Notes: generated by a model from the sequence alone, not told the origin. DNA of 64,000 nt from Enterobacteria phage vB_EcoM_IME341 (MH051917), one strand, 5' to 3'. Numbered from the stretch's first letter, positions 26,830 to 41,390 are shown. Made by a program: numbers and translations.

Positions 26830-27267
26830 ATGAGTAAAGAGATTGAATATAAATTAGAGTCATTCCAAGATGCTTTGGATGAAGATTTGAAGATTGATGG
26901 GACTCGTTTACAGTATGAAGTACAGAACAACGTTTTGCTGCACAGCAAATGGCTAAGACTGTATACGAATTGTAAGAAAGAAATAATGAGATTAGAAATC
27001 CAGAAAAAGACCTCACTTAAGAAGCGATTAGATTTCTACACGGGACGTGGAGAGCCTGGTGATGAGGTTTGTATGGACCAATATGAGAAGTCTGAATTAA
27101 AGACCGTAATGGCTGCAGATTCTAGTGTAATTAAAATCGATACGTCAATCCAGTATTGGGCTTTATTACAGGACTTCTGTAGTTCGGCTTTAGACGCAGT
27201 CAAAGCCAGAGGTTTCTCATTAAAGAATATGTTGGAGCTCAGGAAATTTGAAGCAGGTGAAAAATAA
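26830..27267 (+). CDS. uvsY: Recombination mediator UvsY
   Basis: From the internal Met behind AGGAAA: MSKEIEYKLESFQDALDEDLKIDGTRLQYEVQNNVLLHSKWL... matches T4 UvsY throughout (...RGFSLKNMLELRKFEAGEK). Confidence 0.93.
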   Translation: MSKEIEYKLESFQDALDEDLKIDGTRLQYEVQNNVLLHSKWLRLYTNCKKEIMRLEIQKKTSLKKRLDFYTGRGEPGDEVCMDQYEKSELKTVMAADSSVIKIDTSIQYWALLQDFCSSALDAVKARGFSLKNMLELRKFEAGEK

Positions 27268-27946
27268 AAAGTACCATATGTGCTACCAAACTTTAGTATA
27301 CTCGCCTAACGGAACTAGGCGATATTTTGGTAAGCATTCTTCTGATAAAATATCTGACAAGTATGTAGGGTCTGGTAATTACATCTATTATGCAAAAAGA
27401 TTAAAATACCGAATTGAAATAGTCGATAGGACTTTTTTCGATACCGAACAACTTGCTTATGAATTCGAAGAGCTTTTGATAGAAGAGGCTTGGGATAAGT
27501 TTGGTAAAGGTATTCGCTGTATGAATATGAAACCTGGTGGTGAAGGAGGTAGTTGTACTACTCGTTCTCCTGAATCTATTGAAAAGAGTGCGTCGAAAAT
27601 ACGAGGTATTCCAAGGTCTGAATCCACCAAACAAGCCATAAGTGCGGGTCATAAAAGAAATCCATATTCTCATACAGAAGAAGCTAAAAAAGCTATGTCA
27701 TTAGCCAAATTAGGTAAGAAACGTACCAAAGAGGCTAATGAGGCCCATATAGGTAAACATTCACAGCCTAAGCTTTCTATGAGAAGTAAATTATGGGAAT
27801 TTGAAAAGGAAATCCGTGAACTTTGGATAAAGGAAGGAATGCCTAAAAGAAGGAAATTTCAACGCATAATAGTTGAGAATGGATTTCCTGATTTAGATGT
27901 AGGTTATATGGTTAAAACATTTGAAAAGAATTTGGCTAATAAATAG
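27248..27946 (+). CDS. Seg-like GIY-YIG homing endonuclease
   Basis: N-terminal GIY-YIG-like core (CYQTLVY...YVGSGNY), followed by repeated NUMOD3-like basic motifs (STKQAISAGHKRNP, EEAKKAMSLAKLGKKRTKEANEAHIGKH); inserted between uvsY and the uvsY.-2-like ORF. The start may be the ATG at about 27278. Confidence 0.75.
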   Translation: MKQVKNKKYHMCYQTLVYSPNGTRRYFGKHSSDKISDKYVGSGNYIYYAKRLKYRIEIVDRTFFDTEQLAYEFEELLIEEAWDKFGKGIRCMNMKPGGEGGSCTTRSPESIEKSASKIRGIPRSESTKQAISAGHKRNPYSHTEEAKKAMSLAKLGKKRTKEANEAHIGKHSQPKLSMRSKLWEFEKEIRELWIKEGMPKRRKFQRIIVENGFPDLDVGYMVKTFEKNLANK

Positions 27947-34204: not shown

Positions 34205-34212
34205 ATGATAAA

Positions 34213-34235
34213 GGGACCGTAAGGTCCCTTTTTTT
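34213..34235. terminator. Bidirectional terminator between convergent rnlB and the gene 24 paralogue
   Basis: GGGACC-GTAA-GGTCCC hairpin flanked by an A-run and TTTTTTT. Confidence 0.8.
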
Positions 34236-35517
34236 AGTTTTTATCCAATGGAGGAAGTTTAACACCAAGATAAGAACTCAATTGACTTTGATTAGCCATT
34301 TTGTCCATATCCGCACCGTCAATAATACGAGCTTCTTTGTCGTCTTTAGCGACGGTATAAGGATTCGCAGTCAATGCATACCGAGCCAATAAAGATATGG
34401 TAGGTTGCAATGAATCTGGGTCTACAATAACCTTGAATTCACCTACTGAAGTATCACCTTCATCATCAACTTCTTCGAGCCCTTCCGTATAAGGCGCATA
34501 ATACAAAGATGCGACCGTCTGCCCTTCACCCATCTGAGCATTTACACCGACAATAACATAATCACACGGACTATTCATATCAGCATAAAGTGGTAGACCG
34601 TTCTTTAATATGCCATAAGCTAATTCGTCTTGGTCTTCTTTTTTCTCAACCCAACCGGATGCAGCTAAAATAGCGGCGCAACGAGAAGAAGCTACTGCAT
34701 AAGTACCTGCAAACGAAGTCTGGCGTTGAACAGCAGAATTCATTTCACACATATAGTAATACAAGGTACGCGCTCGGTCTTGGGCGTTATCATATTGTGG
34801 GTCTGTTAAGTTCAAGACGCCTTTCTCGGAAACTCCTTGGACTTTAAAACGAGAACTTACCGTAATTAAGGACTGTAATACGTCTTTATTAATTTCTTCG
34901 GCCATTTGAATAGCCAAAATATTGTCTATAAAGTCTGGTGCATTAAACCCGTTGGATTCTAAATCCTGGGCCAGTTCTACAGTCAAAGAAGTTTTAAGTT
35001 TACGCGATTTAACTTCAGTCTGCCACTTATCAATACGGAATCCTGCTTCAGCAATCTCAGGATGGCCTTTTTCAAATTTATTGGTAAAGGCTGCATCAGA
35101 CATCATACGAATATGGCCTGCTGCAATAGCTTCTGAAATAACTTCACCCAAATCGGTTTCAGTTGTTCCTGCAAACGGAGAAGCTTCTAATACCTTGAAA
35201 ACCACACTTTCGAATTGGAACATATCACCAACAGCATATGCTTCGTCTTTATCGGTGAATTCAGGAATGTTTTTACGTTCGAACATACCAATTTCGCCTG
35301 CAAAAGTGGCTCCGCCGAGATAAGTCATTTTATCGTCTGGGTTTAAAACACGGACACCATATAATGCTGCAACAGGTTGAGTAGTTTTTTGTTCAGCAAC
35401 AAGGGCTTTAAAAATTCTTTTATTAGTTGCCTGGGTATATGAAAGAAGATTAGGACGGGCGACCTGGTTGGCCGCCGTCAAAGTTGATTCTTGTATTAAT
35501 GCATTAATCTTTTTCAT
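34234..35517 (-). CDS. Capsid vertex protein paralogue (gp24-like, second copy)
   Basis: 427 aa; roughly 50% identical by eye to the adjacent gp24 (e.g. ...RPNL...AT.K.I....AEQ.T.QP.AALYGV..L.PD...); starts one codon after the gp24 stop (TAAATG). Confidence 0.85.
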   Translation of the reverse strand: MKKINALIQESTLTAANQVARPNLLSYTQATNKRIFKALVAEQKTTQPVAALYGVRVLNPDDKMTYLGGATFAGEIGMFERKNIPEFTDKDEAYAVGDMFQFESVVFKVLEASPFAGTTETDLGEVISEAIAAGHIRMMSDAAFTNKFEKGHPEIAEAGFRIDKWQTEVKSRKLKTSLTVELAQDLESNGFNAPDFIDNILAIQMAEEINKDVLQSLITVSSRFKVQGVSEKGVLNLTDPQYDNAQDRARTLYYYMCEMNSAVQRQTSFAGTYAVASSRCAAILAASGWVEKKEDQDELAYGILKNGLPLYADMNSPCDYVIVGVNAQMGEGQTVASLYYAPYTEGLEEVDDEGDTSVGEFKVIVDPDSLQPTISLLARYALTANPYTVAKDDKEARIIDGADMDKMANQSQLSSYLGVKLPPLDKN

Positions 35518-36798
35518 TTATGCCTCGTAAATAATTGGAGGAAGTTTAACACCAAGCAGATAAGACATATTACTCTGCCCTGCCATTAAATCCATATTAG
35601 TTGCGTCTATAACACGAGCTTCTTTATCATCTTTAGCAACGGTATACGGGTTTGCTGAAAGTGCATAACGAACCATCAGAGAAATAGCCGGTTGCAAACT
35701 ATCAGGGTCTACAATAACTTTATAGGCACCAACATGTTCTTGGTCGTCTAAATCCAGACCTTCGGTATACGGAGCATAGAAAATAGAACCAACTACTTCA
35801 TTACCGCCGTAATCTTCTTTAACGCCTACGATAACATAATCTAAAGGACTATTAACATCACAGAATACAGGCAATCCATTAATCAAATAACCGTAAGCAG
35901 TTTCTGGGAGCCAAGCTTCATCTTCTGGTTTATGTTTCAACCAACCTGAACCTGCAAGCATTGCGGCTACACGACTAGATGCGACAACAAACGTACCTGA
36001 ATAAGAAGTGGTTTTCTGAATTTCAGAATTCATCTCACAAACCATTTCATATAATTTACGTGCACTTTCTGGAGCGGAATTATAGGACAAATCAATAATA
36101 CCGTTATCAGATACACCAGTTACTTTGTAACGTTTAGATACGGTAATCAAGGATTGTAATACGTCTTTATTGATTTCATCAGCCATTACAGTGGCTAAAA
36201 GGTCTTCTAAGAACGCAGGGGCGTCGAAGCCATTAGATTCCATGTCTTGGGCTAGTTCTACAGTCAAAGCGGTTTTAAGCTTACGGGACTTAACAGGGGC
36301 GTTCCATTTATTAACCTGGAATACTGCATTGCTAATTTCAACATCACCTGCTTCGAATTTTTCTGTGTGGGCCGCATCAGGAACAAGACGACAAGTTAAT
36401 GACACCAAACCTTCTTGAAGGGCATCAGCCAATTCTGTAGCGCTAGTGGATGCGAGTGGGCTTGCTTGAAGAGCCTTATAAACCACATTCTGATACTTGA
36501 AATATTCACCCTCGGCAATCGCCTGGGCCTTATCTGTGAGTTCCGGGATAGTTTCACGGTCTTTAGAACCAACTTCACCGCCATAAACGGCACCAGTTTG
36601 GAAGCTGAATTCATTATCAGGGGTAAGATATTTGACACCATACAATGCAGCAATAGGCTGGCTAGTACGTTGTTCAGCAATAATATCACGGTAAATCAAT
36701 TTGGTTGTAGCACGGGTCAAAGCAACAAGATTAGGGCGACCCAATGAGTTGCTAGAAGTAGTTGTTGACTCGCGCAGTAATTCGTTAATCTTTGCCAT
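35518..36798 (-). CDS. 24: Capsid vertex protein gp24
   Basis: 426 aa; near-identical to T4 gp24 (MAKINELLRESTTT.SNS.GRPNLVALTRATTKLIY.DI.A.QRT.QP...); late promoter TATAAATA about 29 nt upstream. Confidence 0.95.
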   Translation of the reverse strand: MAKINELLRESTTTSSNSLGRPNLVALTRATTKLIYRDIIAEQRTSQPIAALYGVKYLTPDNEFSFQTGAVYGGEVGSKDRETIPELTDKAQAIAEGEYFKYQNVVYKALQASPLASTSATELADALQEGLVSLTCRLVPDAAHTEKFEAGDVEISNAVFQVNKWNAPVKSRKLKTALTVELAQDMESNGFDAPAFLEDLLATVMADEINKDVLQSLITVSKRYKVTGVSDNGIIDLSYNSAPESARKLYEMVCEMNSEIQKTTSYSGTFVVASSRVAAMLAGSGWLKHKPEDEAWLPETAYGYLINGLPVFCDVNSPLDYVIVGVKEDYGGNEVVGSIFYAPYTEGLDLDDQEHVGAYKVIVDPDSLQPAISLMVRYALSANPYTVAKDDKEARVIDATNMDLMAGQSNMSYLLGVKLPPIIYEA

Positions 36799-36826
36799 TG
36801 CGCTTTCCTTATTGAGGGTATATGTT

Positions 36827-36834
36827 TATTTATA
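36827..36834 (-). promoter_or_regulatory. Late promoter for gene 24
   Basis: TATAAATA on the minus strand, about 29 nt upstream of the gp24 ATG. Confidence 0.65.
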
Positions 36835-36840
36835 AAAGTT

Positions 36841-36870
36841 GTTTACAGCAAGGTTATCACATGTTACTAT
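36841..36870 (+). promoter_or_regulatory. Early promoter-like element for ORF 36900 and the Seg-like gene
   Basis: GTTTAC-N18-TACTAT followed by a CATGAGGAG leader. Confidence 0.5.
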
Positions 36871-36899
36871 AGACCTATCAAAACATGAGGAGATTAAAA

Positions 36900-37166
36900 A
36901 TGAACAAGTTAAACTTTATTCGTACTACTCTTTCCGCTCTTGATAAAGACATCAAAGCCCTGGTAGAAAAATATGGTTCCAATCCTAACGGTAATGCAGT
37001 GAATGCACTAGTTAAGAAATACGAAGCCATGGCTTATGCTACCGACTTCTGGTGGAACGGTGAATACTCTACCCATACCAAAGACAAATCTGGTAACTGG
37101 CTGAAAATCCAAGAAAATCGTATTGACTTCCGTGATATCATCAACCGTCGTGTCAAAGCAGCGTAA
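36900..37166 (+). CDS. Hypothetical protein
   Basis: Start at the ATG behind GAGGAG (track ORF begins at 36885); 88 aa; early-type promoter at about 36841-36870. Confidence 0.5.
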   Translation: MNKLNFIRTTLSALDKDIKALVEKYGSNPNGNAVNALVKKYEAMAYATDFWWNGEYSTHTKDKSGNWLKIQENRIDFRDIINRRVKAA

Positions 37167-37169
37167 AAT

Positions 37170-37841
37170 ATGAATTATTTAATTTACAAAATAACCAATC
37201 TCATTAATAACAAGATTTATGTTGGAGCCCATGCCACTACAGATGTTAATGATTCTTATATGGGCTCCGGGGTTAACATAGTAAAATCCATAAAGAAATA
37301 CGGCTTAGAGAATTTTAAAAAGGAAATCCTTTTCAATTTCGAAACATCTGAAGAGATGTATGCTAAGGAAGCCGAACTAGTTGACGAGGCTTTTGTTATG
37401 AGAACAGATACTTATAATGCAGCTTTAGGTGGTAAGGGTAATCCTGTTATAGTAGCTTTACAGGAACCTGGGTATCGTGAGATGTTATCCGAAAAGACCA
37501 AGGCAGGTATGACCAAGGAAGTAAGGGCCAAAATGTCTAAATCGAAAACAGGTTCTAAAGAATCCAAAGAGCACCGAGAAAACAAATCTATAGCTAATAA
37601 AAAGTTTTATGAGAATAGGGATTCTCATCTTAAAGGTAGGAAACTATCGGAAGAACATAAAGCCAAAATTAGAGAGAACTCTAATAAAGGTAAGAAATTT
37701 GTATTTGTTGATATAATGATTAAAGGATATAGATTTGACAGATACGAAACCGCCGCCGAATTTTTTAATGTTACCGGAGCTACCATTCGTAATTGGATTA
37801 AAGAAACAAGGCCTCAATTTGACGATTGCTATAAGTTATAG
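37170..37841 (+). CDS. Seg-like GIY-YIG homing endonuclease (segD position between genes 24 and 23)
   Basis: 223 aa; canonical GIY-YIG N-terminus (YLIYKITNLINNKIYVGAH...YMGSG), NUMOD3-like repeats (SEKTKAGMTKEVRAKMSKSKTGSKESKEH), C-terminal HTH-like end (FFNVTGATIRNWIKE). Confidence 0.85.
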   Translation: MNYLIYKITNLINNKIYVGAHATTDVNDSYMGSGVNIVKSIKKYGLENFKKEILFNFETSEEMYAKEAELVDEAFVMRTDTYNAALGGKGNPVIVALQEPGYREMLSEKTKAGMTKEVRAKMSKSKTGSKESKEHRENKSIANKKFYENRDSHLKGRKLSEEHKAKIRENSNKGKKFVFVDIMIKGYRFDRYETAAEFFNVTGATIRNWIKETRPQFDDCYKL

Positions 37842-37851
37842 AAACAAGAAT

Positions 37852-37869
37852 GGGAGACCGAAGTCTCCC
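37852..37869. other. GC hairpin between the Seg-like gene and the gene 23 3' end
   Basis: GGGAGAC-CGAA-GTCTCCC; weak T-run. Confidence 0.5.
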
Positions 37870-37899
37870 AAATAATTTAAGAATTAATAACTTATGTTA

Positions 37900-39459
37900 T
37901 CAAATTCCCTTAACGTAAACGCGACGGAAGTAACCATTCAGACCGAGGCTGTTAACGATGTCAGGCATACCATTCTGAATACGTTTGGTAGGCGCCTGAG
38001 CAGCTGGGTCAGCGAACGGGTTAATACCGATACCGTAACGAGTTTTGAAGCCCATTACCGGTTGGAAGTTCTTCGGATCGGAACCACGCAGCGGAGTCAG
38101 TGCAACGTACGGAGCATAGTAGATACCTGCGTCCATTTCGTTAGAACCTTTATAACCGATGGTGAAGTAATCGGAACGAGCATACTGGTCGATGTAAACA
38201 CGATATTTACCACCAAGAACACCGGCAAATACTGCTTTGGTTGTGTCAACGTTGAAACCCTGACCCAAACCTTGAGCTGCATAACTTACAGAAGTATCAA
38301 CTGCAGCCAGTACGTTAACTACGTTACGGGAAGCGATGATGAAGTTACCAGCACCACGACCGGTCTGACGAGCGATTTCGGCTGCTTCTTTATCAATCTG
38401 GAACAGAAGGGCTTTAAAGCTCTCACCGGCCCAACGAGCACCACGGATATCAATCGGGTCCTGGAAGTCAAACACACCAGCTTTAGCGCCAACGGTGTTG
38501 GTCATACCAGATTTACCAACCTGTGCAGAGTAGTTAATCCAATCGATAACTTCACGGTTGATTTCGAGCATAATTTCGGTAGCAAGGATACCGGACAGTT
38601 CAGCATCTGCATCCATACCGTGTACTGCACGAAGGTCCTGTGCCAGTTCGATAGAGTAGCTTGCTTTCAGCTGACGGGATTTAGCTTCGATAACTTGTTT
38701 GTCGATGCGGAAGCCCATTTCGTTCCACGGGTTATCGGTAGAACCGTTGAAACCTTCCTGAAGTTCAGCGATAGAAGTAGCCATACCTTCAGCGATTTCA
38801 GCCAGTTGACCAGCTTCAACCAGAGCGGTAACAGCAGCATCCAGTTTAGCGGCATCAGTAGCGCCTGCATCAACGGTCACAGCTTCAACAGCCTGGAAGT
38901 GTGCAGCACCGGTAGCTTCGAAGAAGTGAGAATAAATTTTACCAACTTCCAGAACTTTGCTTGCAGCCAGTGCTTCGAAAGTTTCAGCAGCACCCTGACC
39001 AGAGAACATAGCGTTCGGAGCATACATCGGATGGAAAGCTTCTTTAGCGCCTGCAGCGATAGGGTCTTTACCGTATACTGCACGCAGTGCAAATACCTGA
39101 CCAGTAGGGTTATTCAGAGGCTGAACACCACAAATATCAAAAGCAATCAGATGAGGAATAGCACGACGAACCATACCCATTACTGCCGGCCCAATCTGAG
39201 TTACAGCACCAGAGGTCTGGCCAGCTGCGATATTGGTAGCATCATAACCGTGGTCACCACCGATTTCAGCTTCAGTCAGGAAAGAACCAAATGCTTCGGA
39301 GATTTTTTCGTCACGATATTCTGGAGCAGTCAGGATGTCTTGTTCCTGGTTTTCGAAAATTTTAGCGATGATAGCTTGTTTAGAAGCACCAACGATTTCA
39401 GGAAGAGCTTCGTTTTCCAGCAGAGCGGACCATTTTTGAACTAATGCATTCTTTTTCAT
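37900..39459 (-). CDS. 23: Major capsid protein gp23
   Basis: 519 aa; near-identical to T4 gp23 over most of its length (QAIIAKIFENQE...GSFLTEAEIGGDHGY.ATNIAAGQTSGAVTQIGPAVMGMVRRAIP.LIAFDICGVQP...). Confidence 0.98.
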   Translation of the reverse strand: MKKNALVQKWSALLENEALPEIVGASKQAIIAKIFENQEQDILTAPEYRDEKISEAFGSFLTEAEIGGDHGYDATNIAAGQTSGAVTQIGPAVMGMVRRAIPHLIAFDICGVQPLNNPTGQVFALRAVYGKDPIAAGAKEAFHPMYAPNAMFSGQGAAETFEALAASKVLEVGKIYSHFFEATGAAHFQAVEAVTVDAGATDAAKLDAAVTALVEAGQLAEIAEGMATSIAELQEGFNGSTDNPWNEMGFRIDKQVIEAKSRQLKASYSIELAQDLRAVHGMDADAELSGILATEIMLEINREVIDWINYSAQVGKSGMTNTVGAKAGVFDFQDPIDIRGARWAGESFKALLFQIDKEAAEIARQTGRGAGNFIIASRNVVNVLAAVDTSVSYAAQGLGQGFNVDTTKAVFAGVLGGKYRVYIDQYARSDYFTIGYKGSNEMDAGIYYAPYVALTPLRGSDPKNFQPVMGFKTRYGIGINPFADPAAQAPTKRIQNGMPDIVNSLGLNGYFRRVYVKGI

Positions 39460-39480
39460 GTGTTGTATAACCTTATTAAA

Positions 39481-40296
39481 TTAAGAAATTCGTGATGCTG
39501 CGATTGCAGACAGGTCCGCGAAGGACAGGGTAGGCTTAGCGCCTTTTTCTTCAACTGCTTCCGAAATGTAATTCAGTGCTGCAGCATCGTCTTCAGTTTT
39601 ATTTATAGCGGCTTCGGTGATTGGTTTTTCAACGTCAGACTGACCTTTAACCATTTCAACGATAGCGCTAATTTTTTTACCAAATGCATCGGAATAATCC
39701 ATGCCTTCTACCAGAGAACTAACTTTTTCTTTCTGAGATTCGGTCAGGTCTTTGGTTGCTTCCGTAACAGCAACTTCACGCTGTACGTAATTGATATAAG
39801 AATCACGCTTACCAACTTCTTCGAACAGGCGAGCGGTTTCGGCTTTCTGTTCAGCCAATTCTTCTTCCATTTCAGCAACAACATCTACTGCTTCTTCTGG
39901 AACAACCACATTGTGTTCAACAAACAGTTCTTTCATACCCATCAACATGGATTCGAACAGTTCGGCTTTAATACCTTTATCAACAGCCAGCTGGTTTTCA
40001 GCCATCCATTCTTTAGCAACGTGGTCAAGGAAACGACCGGCAGCTTCTTGGATTTTCTTATCGGCTTTTTCTTCAGCTTCTTCTTTATTTTTCTCAACTT
40101 CTTCTTCCGCTTTTTCAGCGATTTTAGCGATGTGAGATTCAGCCAGTTTCACGGCGTGTTGCTTGACGGTAGCTTCGAATACAGTGCCGAAAGTTTCTTT
40201 TGCTTCCGGAGAAATATTAACTGATTCGAAAATACTATCAAGAGCAACGGAAGCATCAATATTCTGTGCTTCGGCAATCAGTTGTTCTTTAAGCAT
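39481..40296 (-). CDS. 22: Prohead core scaffold protein gp22
   Basis: 271 aa, acidic and alpha-helical; position between 23 and 21; size as T4 gp22. Confidence 0.85.
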   Translation of the reverse strand: MLKEQLIAEAQNIDASVALDSIFESVNISPEAKETFGTVFEATVKQHAVKLAESHIAKIAEKAEEEVEKNKEEAEEKADKKIQEAAGRFLDHVAKEWMAENQLAVDKGIKAELFESMLMGMKELFVEHNVVVPEEAVDVVAEMEEELAEQKAETARLFEEVGKRDSYINYVQREVAVTEATKDLTESQKEKVSSLVEGMDYSDAFGKKISAIVEMVKGQSDVEKPITEAAINKTEDDAAALNYISEAVEEKGAKPTLSFADLSAIAASRIS

Positions 40297-40323
40297 TTTG
40301 TAGTCCTGTTGTTTAGATAATAA

Positions 40324-40331
40324 TATTTATA
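40324..40331 (-). promoter_or_regulatory. Late promoter for gene 22
   Basis: TATAAATA on the minus strand between gene 21 and gene 22. Confidence 0.55.
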
Positions 40332-40962
40332 ACGCTTTTTTCATGGCCTCTGCGAGAGCCATAAAGGCGTCATCGGCACTGGTATCGGTTTCTACCGTTT
40401 GTGATTCTGTAATTTGCTTTGGAGTTACATAAGCATCAGGAGCAGATGGTCCCCATACTGCATCAACACCGACGGTTAATTTATAACCTTCGTTTACACG
40501 CTTATATCCTTTGTTGGTTTCGGTTAAAGAACCAAGACCACGAGAACTAACACCAGGAACCCAACCTGCTCGAATATTTGCAGCTAGTTTATCACCTGGA
40601 CCATGGTCACCTTCGATGATACGTGCACGTCCATAAACGTCATTACCTTTCCACCACATATCTTCTATAATAATAGCGGCTTGCATAGGGTCGACGTTAG
40701 CACGAGGCGGATGATTTAATTCTCCTAAAGCTTGTTTAGTAGCAACTTGTTCTGCCATATAATCGGCAACGGCTTTTTCCAAAATAGGTTTTGGGTAAAG
40801 ACGTTTATTACGGTTAACTACTTCGGCTTGCATGAAAATGCCTTCTATATAAAGGCCTGGGGCAAGTCCAGAATCTTTCCCATCATGAGATTCCAACATA
40901 GGAACCCCATCGATAATTTCACCTGGTTGTCCCCAATGTTCGATGAGCAATTCAGGTTTCAT
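40327..40962 (-). CDS. 21: Prohead protease gp21
   Basis: 211 aa (T4 212 aa); synteny. Confidence 0.85.
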   Translation of the reverse strand: MKPELLIEHWGQPGEIIDGVPMLESHDGKDSGLAPGLYIEGIFMQAEVVNRNKRLYPKPILEKAVADYMAEQVATKQALGELNHPPRANVDPMQAAIIIEDMWWKGNDVYGRARIIEGDHGPGDKLAANIRAGWVPGVSSRGLGSLTETNKGYKRVNEGYKLTVGVDAVWGPSAPDAYVTPKQITESQTVETDTSADDAFMALAEAMKKAL

Positions 40963-41390
40963 TAGTTAAGTCCAAAGGCTTTACGTTTAGAACGAGCTTT
41001 TTTACGCTTACGTTCAGCACGTACTTGAGTAGACGGATTAGCACGTTTGGTTTTAGATGCTTTGCGAGCAATCTGACGGCGTTTTGCTTTAGATAACCCA
41101 GTCGTTTGATAAGCATTGCGTTGACGGGTTTTAATATCTTTAGTACGAGTAAGCTCACCTTTAGAGGAGACATGCTTAACGATAAATTCGTTAAGAGCCA
41201 TATTTTCATTCAAAGAAGCAATGGCAATAGCTGTATCGATATCACCATCAGCAATCATGTTCTCTACAAGATTATTTATATCGCTTTTCTCGAGTGCTTC
41301 AGAAAGAATAGCAAAACGTCCCTGTGCTTCTAGAATTTTGGCCTCTACGCTTTCAAGAGTTAATTCGTAATCATCAGGGATAAGGAACAT
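40962..41390 (-). CDS. 68: Prohead core protein gp68
   Basis: 142 aa (T4 141 aa); basic C-terminus; ATGA overlap with gene 21. Confidence 0.75.

Follow-up and report, generated by a model that had tools for sequence, protein, structure and literature searches.

We analyzed a stretch of 64,000 nt from Enterobacteria phage vB_EcoM_IME341 (MH051917), called the window below, and found that the intergenic region between capsid genes 24 and 23 of this Dhakavirus very probably carries an inserted free-standing GIY-YIG endonuclease gene of the SegD lineage (here seg), placed just downstream of a resident gene, orf88. The endonuclease itself is not new, since phage IME08 has an identical copy with the annotation segD, and the finding is for that reason correct but ordinary. 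With the IME08 annotation in place and the T4 relative characterized, it matters little alone. A modest point of the comparison is that the 23/24 spacer is found in four states and that the island containing seg was recently exchanged between Dhakavirus and Mosigvirus.

The window comes from a Dhakavirus, a T4-type coliphage in the JS98/IME08 group. In a megablast search with positions 36000-38700, IME08 matched across 100% of the query (98.2%) and JS98 across 75% (97.5%), and there are zero mismatches between the window and IME08 from 36634 to 40934. The locus is laid out as follows:

34234-35517, minus strand: gene 24b (Pfam Gp23 match, E<=6e-98)
35518-36798, minus strand: gene 24a (Pfam Gp23, E=6e-98)
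36827-36834, minus strand: T4-type late promoter TATAAATA for gene 24a (exact motif match)
36842-36870, plus strand: predicted sigma-70 (T4 early-type) promoter (consensus scan: TTTACA, 17-nt spacer, TG-n-TACTAT)
36900-37166, plus strand: orf88, 88 aa (phrog_6003, 2.9e-49, function unknown)
37154-37823, no strand: insertion relative to the seg-less JS98, net 670 bp (BLAST breakpoints, alignment)
37170-37841, plus strand: seg, 223 aa, SegD-family free-standing GIY-YIG endonuclease (phrog_314 'homing endonuclease', 2.7e-53)
37851-37870, minus strand: 20-nt hairpin TGGGAGAC-TTCG-GTCTCCCA with a C(UUCG)G tetraloop (terminator scan)
37900-39459, minus strand: gene 23 (Pfam Gp23, E=6e-123)

The first-pass annotation had described a plus-strand promoter, an 88-aa ORF, a 223-aa ORF and a hairpin between genes 24 and 23, and each of these elements was recovered where it had been placed. 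Gene order is the same in the window and in IME08 (24b, 24a, orf88 under the name orf166, segD, 23), and the SegD protein and the cassette of IME08 are identical to those of the window, which comes from a different isolate. The late promoter of gene 24a stands back-to-back with the plus-strand promoter and is kept in every relative aligned. Seg is also poorer in G+C (0.32-0.38) than gene 23 (0.47-0.50), which fits a gene that has moved.

The 223-aa reading frame is not a chance ORF, because it matches phrog_314 at the value given above and is 100% identical to IME08 SegD (ADI55494.1, HM071924; 2.7e-141). Its product begins MNYLIYKITN...YVGAH. Alignment with T4 SegD (NP_049788), also 223 aa, gave 57% identity from end to end, and in a tblastn search of T4-type genomes segD was the best match, covering 100% of the query at 56%. 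The other T4 seg genes matched aa 1 to ~95 only (the N-terminal 40-50%), at 45-55% identity. T4 carries segD at 106561-107232, on the strand opposite to genes 23 and 24, and the layout in the window is the same, which bears out the statement in the first-pass annotation that T4 holds segD at this place. The two proteins thus share length, locus, antisense orientation, GIY-YIG motifs and a DC(Y/F)(K/R) C-terminus; T4 differs from the window in having no orf88 and in its diverged DNA-binding region.

Searches with the window Seg sequence alone gave Pfam scores below the cut-offs, with 21.7 bits for SegE_GIY-YIG (PF19835; gathering cut-off 25) and 19.1 bits for NUMOD3 at aa 114-130 (cut-off 20.4). 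Among 40 homologues, SegE_GIY-YIG was matched in 38, NUMOD3 in 25 and GIY-YIG in 22, the PF19835 match among close homologues being counted at E<0.01. A phmmer search of the PDB with the single Seg sequence returned nothing relevant. A profile built from 40 sequences recovered both parts of I-TevI, the DNA-binding domain (1i3j, aligned to Seg aa 152-213) at E=0.0023 and the catalytic domain (1mk0) at E=0.018. The AlphaFold2 (AF2) model, with pLDDT 85 overall and 83-96 over aa 1-90, shows the GIY-YIG fold (beta-beta-alpha-beta-alpha) in its catalytic domain, and the top four Foldseek matches of the model in the PDB were the catalytic and DNA-binding domains of I-TevI. The protein falls into three parts:

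37170-37439, plus strand: GIY-YIG catalytic domain, aa 1-90 (Foldseek against 1mk0/1ln0: TM 0.66, target-normalised, probability 1.00)
37467-37700, plus strand: helical linker with NUMOD3-like repeats, aa 100-177 (model helices at 100-171)
37707-37814, plus strand: C-terminal beta-beta-helix-turn-helix DNA-binding domain, aa 180-215 (Foldseek against 1i3j, probability 1.00)

Like I-TevI, which is encoded in the T4 td intron (1mk0, 1ln0, 1i3j), Seg combines a GIY-YIG domain, a linker, and a minor-groove helix with a helix-turn-helix. It differs in being free-standing rather than intron-encoded, in the absence of a linker zinc finger and in the deletion, in the alignment, of the Arg27 region, and the two proteins are 23-28% identical. 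Residues Y6, Y17, G19, E67 and N83 of Seg are invariant in 40/40 homologues; in the alignment, Y6, Y17, G19 and N83 are identical to I-TevI Y6, Y17, G19 and N90, and E67 is aligned at I-TevI E75 (A75 in the 1mk0 mutant). The first-pass annotation had taken the ORF for a GIY-YIG/NUMOD/HTH endonuclease with a textbook GIY-YIG start, and with the motif residues, the fold and the C-terminal domain all present (alignment, AF2 and Foldseek), that reading holds.

The missing R27 position and the low Pfam scores speak for the ORF being a decayed or catalytically dead remnant, retaining DNA binding only or no function, yet we consider such a fate highly improbable. Throughout the SegD clade, in 40/40 homologues and in T4 SegD itself, the alignment has a 6-residue gap where I-TevI has R27, so the gap is a feature of the clade and not decay of the window copy. 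T4 SegD, which shares the gap, is reportedly an active site-specific nuclease. The ORF is moreover full length, its catalytic domain is predicted with the high pLDDT noted above, and between genera its catalytic half is 98% conserved. In place of the R27 position, the SegD clade has an invariant D28-x-Y30-x-G32-S-G34, and a basic residue such as K51 or R78 would be conceivable as a substitute.

The remaining T4 relatives, SegA, B, C, E, F and G, resemble the window Seg in their SegE_GIY-YIG N-terminal motifs, in their intergenic positions next to essential genes and in their presence/absence polymorphism. According to the review by Edgell et al. 2010 (PMC2988022), the other T4 Seg genes are co-oriented with their neighbors and have middle or late promoters, and segD is alone among the T4 homing endonuclease genes in running against its neighbors. 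The same review describes T4 segD as free-standing, between 23 and 24, with its mobility not determined and its cleavage site unknown as of 2010.

The extent of the inserted DNA was defined against JS98, in which the distance from a common anchor to the hairpin is 48 nt, compared with 718 nt in the window. The edges of the resulting 670-bp insertion are ambiguous by a few bases, with orf88 ending in AAGATTGCATAG in JS98 and seg ending in GACGATTGCTATAAGTTATAG, and its flanks are 97-100% identical to JS98. The promoter, orf88 and the hairpin are kept without seg in JS98 and most other Dhakavirus, and the alignment therefore indicates that within this genus all three are resident and that the indel consists of the seg ORF only. 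In JS98, orf88 ends in a short stretch, AAGATTGCATAG, that resembles the end of seg, GATTGCTATAAG. This resemblance might be the footprint of a deletion, or microhomology that served in the insertion, but the Ile-Ala that it encodes in orf88 is also present in the divergent Mosigvirus allele, and a former seg is therefore not to be read from it. The polymorphism among relatives that the first-pass annotation had named as a check is accordingly present, with the 670-bp ORF lacking from JS98 and most Dhakavirus records. In Petrov et al. 2010 (PMC2993671), JS98 and JS10 are given as having no homing endonuclease genes.

The hairpin had been proposed as part of the endonuclease unit, an assignment that we do not retain. 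It scores as a terminator on the minus strand only, where the T-rich tail comes next, and it is kept in every seg-less relative examined (JS98, QL01, VR5, W143 and Shf125875). From the minus-strand T-rich tail and the presence in seg-less relatives we assign it to gene 23 as its terminator, and a minus-strand terminator is annotated at this position in KAW3E185. The plus-strand transcript may end there too. Since the hairpin is that of gene 23, and JS98 has it together with the promoter and orf88, the "cassette" of the first-pass annotation does not behave as one unit in Dhakavirus, even though all of its elements are present; only seg is an indel relative to JS98.

Among T4-like coliphages, we found the 23/24 spacer in four states:

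State 1, empty: PE37 (segment L015) and most Tequatrovirus
State 2, promoter and orf88: JS98 and most Dhakavirus; W143 (Tequatrovirus); Shf125875 (Mosigvirus)
State 3, promoter, orf88 and seg: the window, IME08, UP19, IMG/VR contig L011, KAW3E185 and ~30 further records
State 4, promoter and seg without orf88: T4 and 53 of ~500 close Tequatrovirus records

The hairpin is found at the empty Tequatrovirus sites as well, and in T4 the start codon of segD occupies the place that the orf88 start codon has elsewhere. The orf88 allele of Shf125875 is only 33% identical. That of W143 is of the Dhakavirus type (segment L018, 670-936). With both promoter and orf88 in W143, and an empty spacer in PE37 and most of its relatives, the pair is itself an indel in Tequatrovirus. 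This observation, together with the many Tequatrovirus spacers that, like PE37, have neither promoter, orf88 nor seg, and with the gain by seg-bearing Mosigvirus of a Dhakavirus-type orf88 allele along with seg, would fit promoter, orf88, seg and hairpin moving as a single mobile cassette. We nevertheless consider a single cassette unlikely. In Dhakavirus and Mosigvirus alike, promoter, hairpin and an orf88 allele occur where seg is absent; T4 has the promoter and seg without orf88; the hairpin, being the terminator of gene 23, is present where the spacer is empty; and the four states already point to the independence of orf88 and seg.

Between the seg-bearing Mosigvirus KAW3E185 and the seg-less Shf125875, the gene 24 flank is 98.8% and the gene 23 flank 98.1% identical. 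The window resembles KAW3E185 far less in these flanks (67% and 83% identity), but orf88 is 92% and the catalytic half of seg 97.9% identical, and sliding-window identity to KAW3E185 peaks at 95-100% over 37018-37418. These alignments show the footprint of a recent lateral transfer of the 3' part of orf88 and seg between Dhakavirus and Mosigvirus. The seg gene is in itself a mosaic. In its DNA-binding part, the allele of the window and IME08 is 72% identical in nucleotides to that of UP19 and KAW3E185, and the latter two are 99-100% identical to each other, a distribution that suggests that the DNA-binding module has been swapped within seg. At 37710-37841 (the helix-turn-helix part) two alleles were seen, the one not in the window being found also in contig L011, and the catalytic half is 93-98% identical.

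The Dhakavirus-level records listed with seg are only IME08, UP19 and 04086, and 36 records cover >=80% of the seg-bearing Mosigvirus query, a count that can include seg-bearing Dhakavirus records. Overall, seg is in the minority in all three genera, in roughly 10-20% of records at most. Such rarity would fit a SegD-type nuclease without self-homing, either lost or never had, that is kept by linkage to the essential capsid genes and spread by homologous recombination. A nuclease of this kind might serve another role, for example stimulating general recombination or excluding competitors. The T4 SegD site is also reportedly identical in segD-bearing and segD-less phages. The title of Sokolov et al. 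2018, as it stands in the reference list of PMC10448857, reports that T4 SegD does not home.

Sequence at the end of gene 23 bears on the same question. Relative to JS98, a diverged patch covers the spacer and the last codons of gene 23:

37871-37925, no strand: diverged patch comprising the spacer and the last six gene 23 codons (relative to JS98)

Within these 55 bp, the six gene 23 codons hold five synonymous changes and no non-synonymous one. The 100-bp bin that holds the patch (37834-37933) has 28 mismatches to JS98, and in the rest of gene 23, out to ~39700, there are 0-2 per 100 bp. We considered the synonymous difference at the gene 23 3' end (AAATTCC with seg, AGATACC without) as the mark of a cleavage-immune target and rejected a strict link: the seg-less ECO111 5-P has the patch of the seg-bearing type, VR5 has part of it, and T4, which carries segD, has the seg-less type. 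As the variant is not strictly linked to seg, the target site cannot be inferred from it, and the failure to find a seg-linked variant at this end counts in favor of a nuclease that does not home. Three observations weigh on the other side. An island of 92-98% identity in a background of 67-83% shows a recent, focused transfer of exactly orf88 and seg; the seg ORF is intact and keeps all residues invariant in the family; and, with 57% identity and a different DNA-binding domain, the results from T4 need not apply to the allele in the window. Taking both sides together, we regard the non-homing alternative as possible but somewhat doubtful.

By analogy with I-TevI and T4 SegD, the C-terminal domain of Seg would bind a long asymmetric site, and the protein would make a staggered double-strand break there. 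In a mixed infection, a break near 23/24 in a seg-less relative would then be repaired from the seg-bearing genome, copying seg and neighboring markers.

Expression of the gene would start from the promoter at 36842-36870. The early-type promoter of the first-pass annotation was confirmed as a motif by the consensus scan (TTTACA-17-TACTAT with an upstream TG). In an alignment of the window, IME08, JS98, UP19 and KAW3E185, the -35 element is without change and the extended -10 element almost so, and the spacer between them varies, being different in KAW3E185; this conservation supports the proposed promoter function. A motif scan of the part of the unit ahead of seg gave neither a late (TATAAATA) nor a MotA-box promoter. 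Homology of the promoter region extends to all promoter-bearing states of the spacer, T4 included, and upstream of T4 segD the region reads TTTACA-17-TATTAT with TG, 10/12 matches (segment L006 of NC_000866, 3754-3782, minus strand). The unit thus has a conserved sigma-70-type promoter ahead of it, and T4 segD has a homologous one; according to the 2010 review of Edgell et al., none specific to segD had been identified (PMC2988022).

From this promoter, host sigma-70 RNA polymerase would transcribe orf88 and seg into one bicistronic mRNA, which would be antisense to the late capsid genes. Translation of orf88 would begin from a strong Shine-Dalgarno sequence, GAGGAG at 36887-36892, with the ATG at 36900 coming 7 nt after. 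The first in-frame ATG, at 36885, gives a mechanical ORF of 93 aa, and the ATG at 36900, as annotated in JS98, gives 88 aa; the 88-aa ORF of the first-pass annotation is therefore present with that start, as a member of a family of unknown function. The seg start codon lies 3 nt past the orf88 stop and no Shine-Dalgarno sequence was seen upstream of it, and for these reasons re-initiation of translation after orf88 would probably yield only small amounts of Seg. No RNA structure masking the seg start was found (minimum free energy -8.6 kcal/mol, z=+1.2).

The protein encoded by orf88, annotated as hypothetical in JS98 and IME08, matched no family in a Pfam search, and a profile search against the PDB returned noise only. 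Its AF2 model (pLDDT 91) has a helix-helix-beta hairpin-helix arrangement and matched only its own family in BFVD, so that the predicted fold is confident but has no informative match. Members of the family were found in 236 phage records, almost all of them under Escherichia or Shigella phage names. A search of 1.84 billion cluster representatives gave 10 hits and a scan of IMG/VR 6 loci, and the family is thus a narrow one, confined to T4-like coliphages. Two long hits among the cluster representatives were judged spurious, a Big_2-repeat protein with nine weak stretches (P0142, 1347 aa) and a protein with eleven matching stretches (P0144, 3916 aa). One could go further and see orf88 and seg as more than a selfish insertion, namely as an early antisense two-gene module, in which the nuclease would bias the inheritance of capsid genes 23 and 24 and orf88 would modulate either the nuclease itself or the expression of the capsid genes. 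We regard this as a long shot; if it were true, the orf88-seg nuclease would drive the exchange of capsid modules across genera in mixed infections.

A second homing-endonuclease-like ORF is present just downstream of uvsY (27248-27946, plus strand, 232 aa; phrog_314, 5.5e-17), with no hit in Pfam. A segment of ~750 bp, 27189-27936, is found in the window and in IME08, where it is unannotated, and is absent from JS98; the ORF there is probably what the first-pass annotation had counted as the first Seg cassette. With JS98 listed as having no such genes in PMC2993671, IME08 and the window represent a JS98-type lineage with at least two endonuclease gains, seg and 27189-27936.

Some smaller differences were seen on the gene 24 side of the locus. 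Genes 24b and 24a are tandem paralogues of gene 24 (capsid vertex) with no spacer between them, and are likewise annotated in JS98 and IME08. A gene of ~1.2 kb for a "tail fiber-like protein" is found between rnlB and 24b in IME08 (segment L007, 16826-18013) and is absent from JS98 and from the window at ~34205-34233. Within gene 24a, 36034-36233 holds 34 of the 67 mismatches to IME08 counted over 34234-41000; the window is JS98-like there, with 4 mismatches to JS98, and this pattern suggests a small patch of recombination within the gene for the vertex protein.
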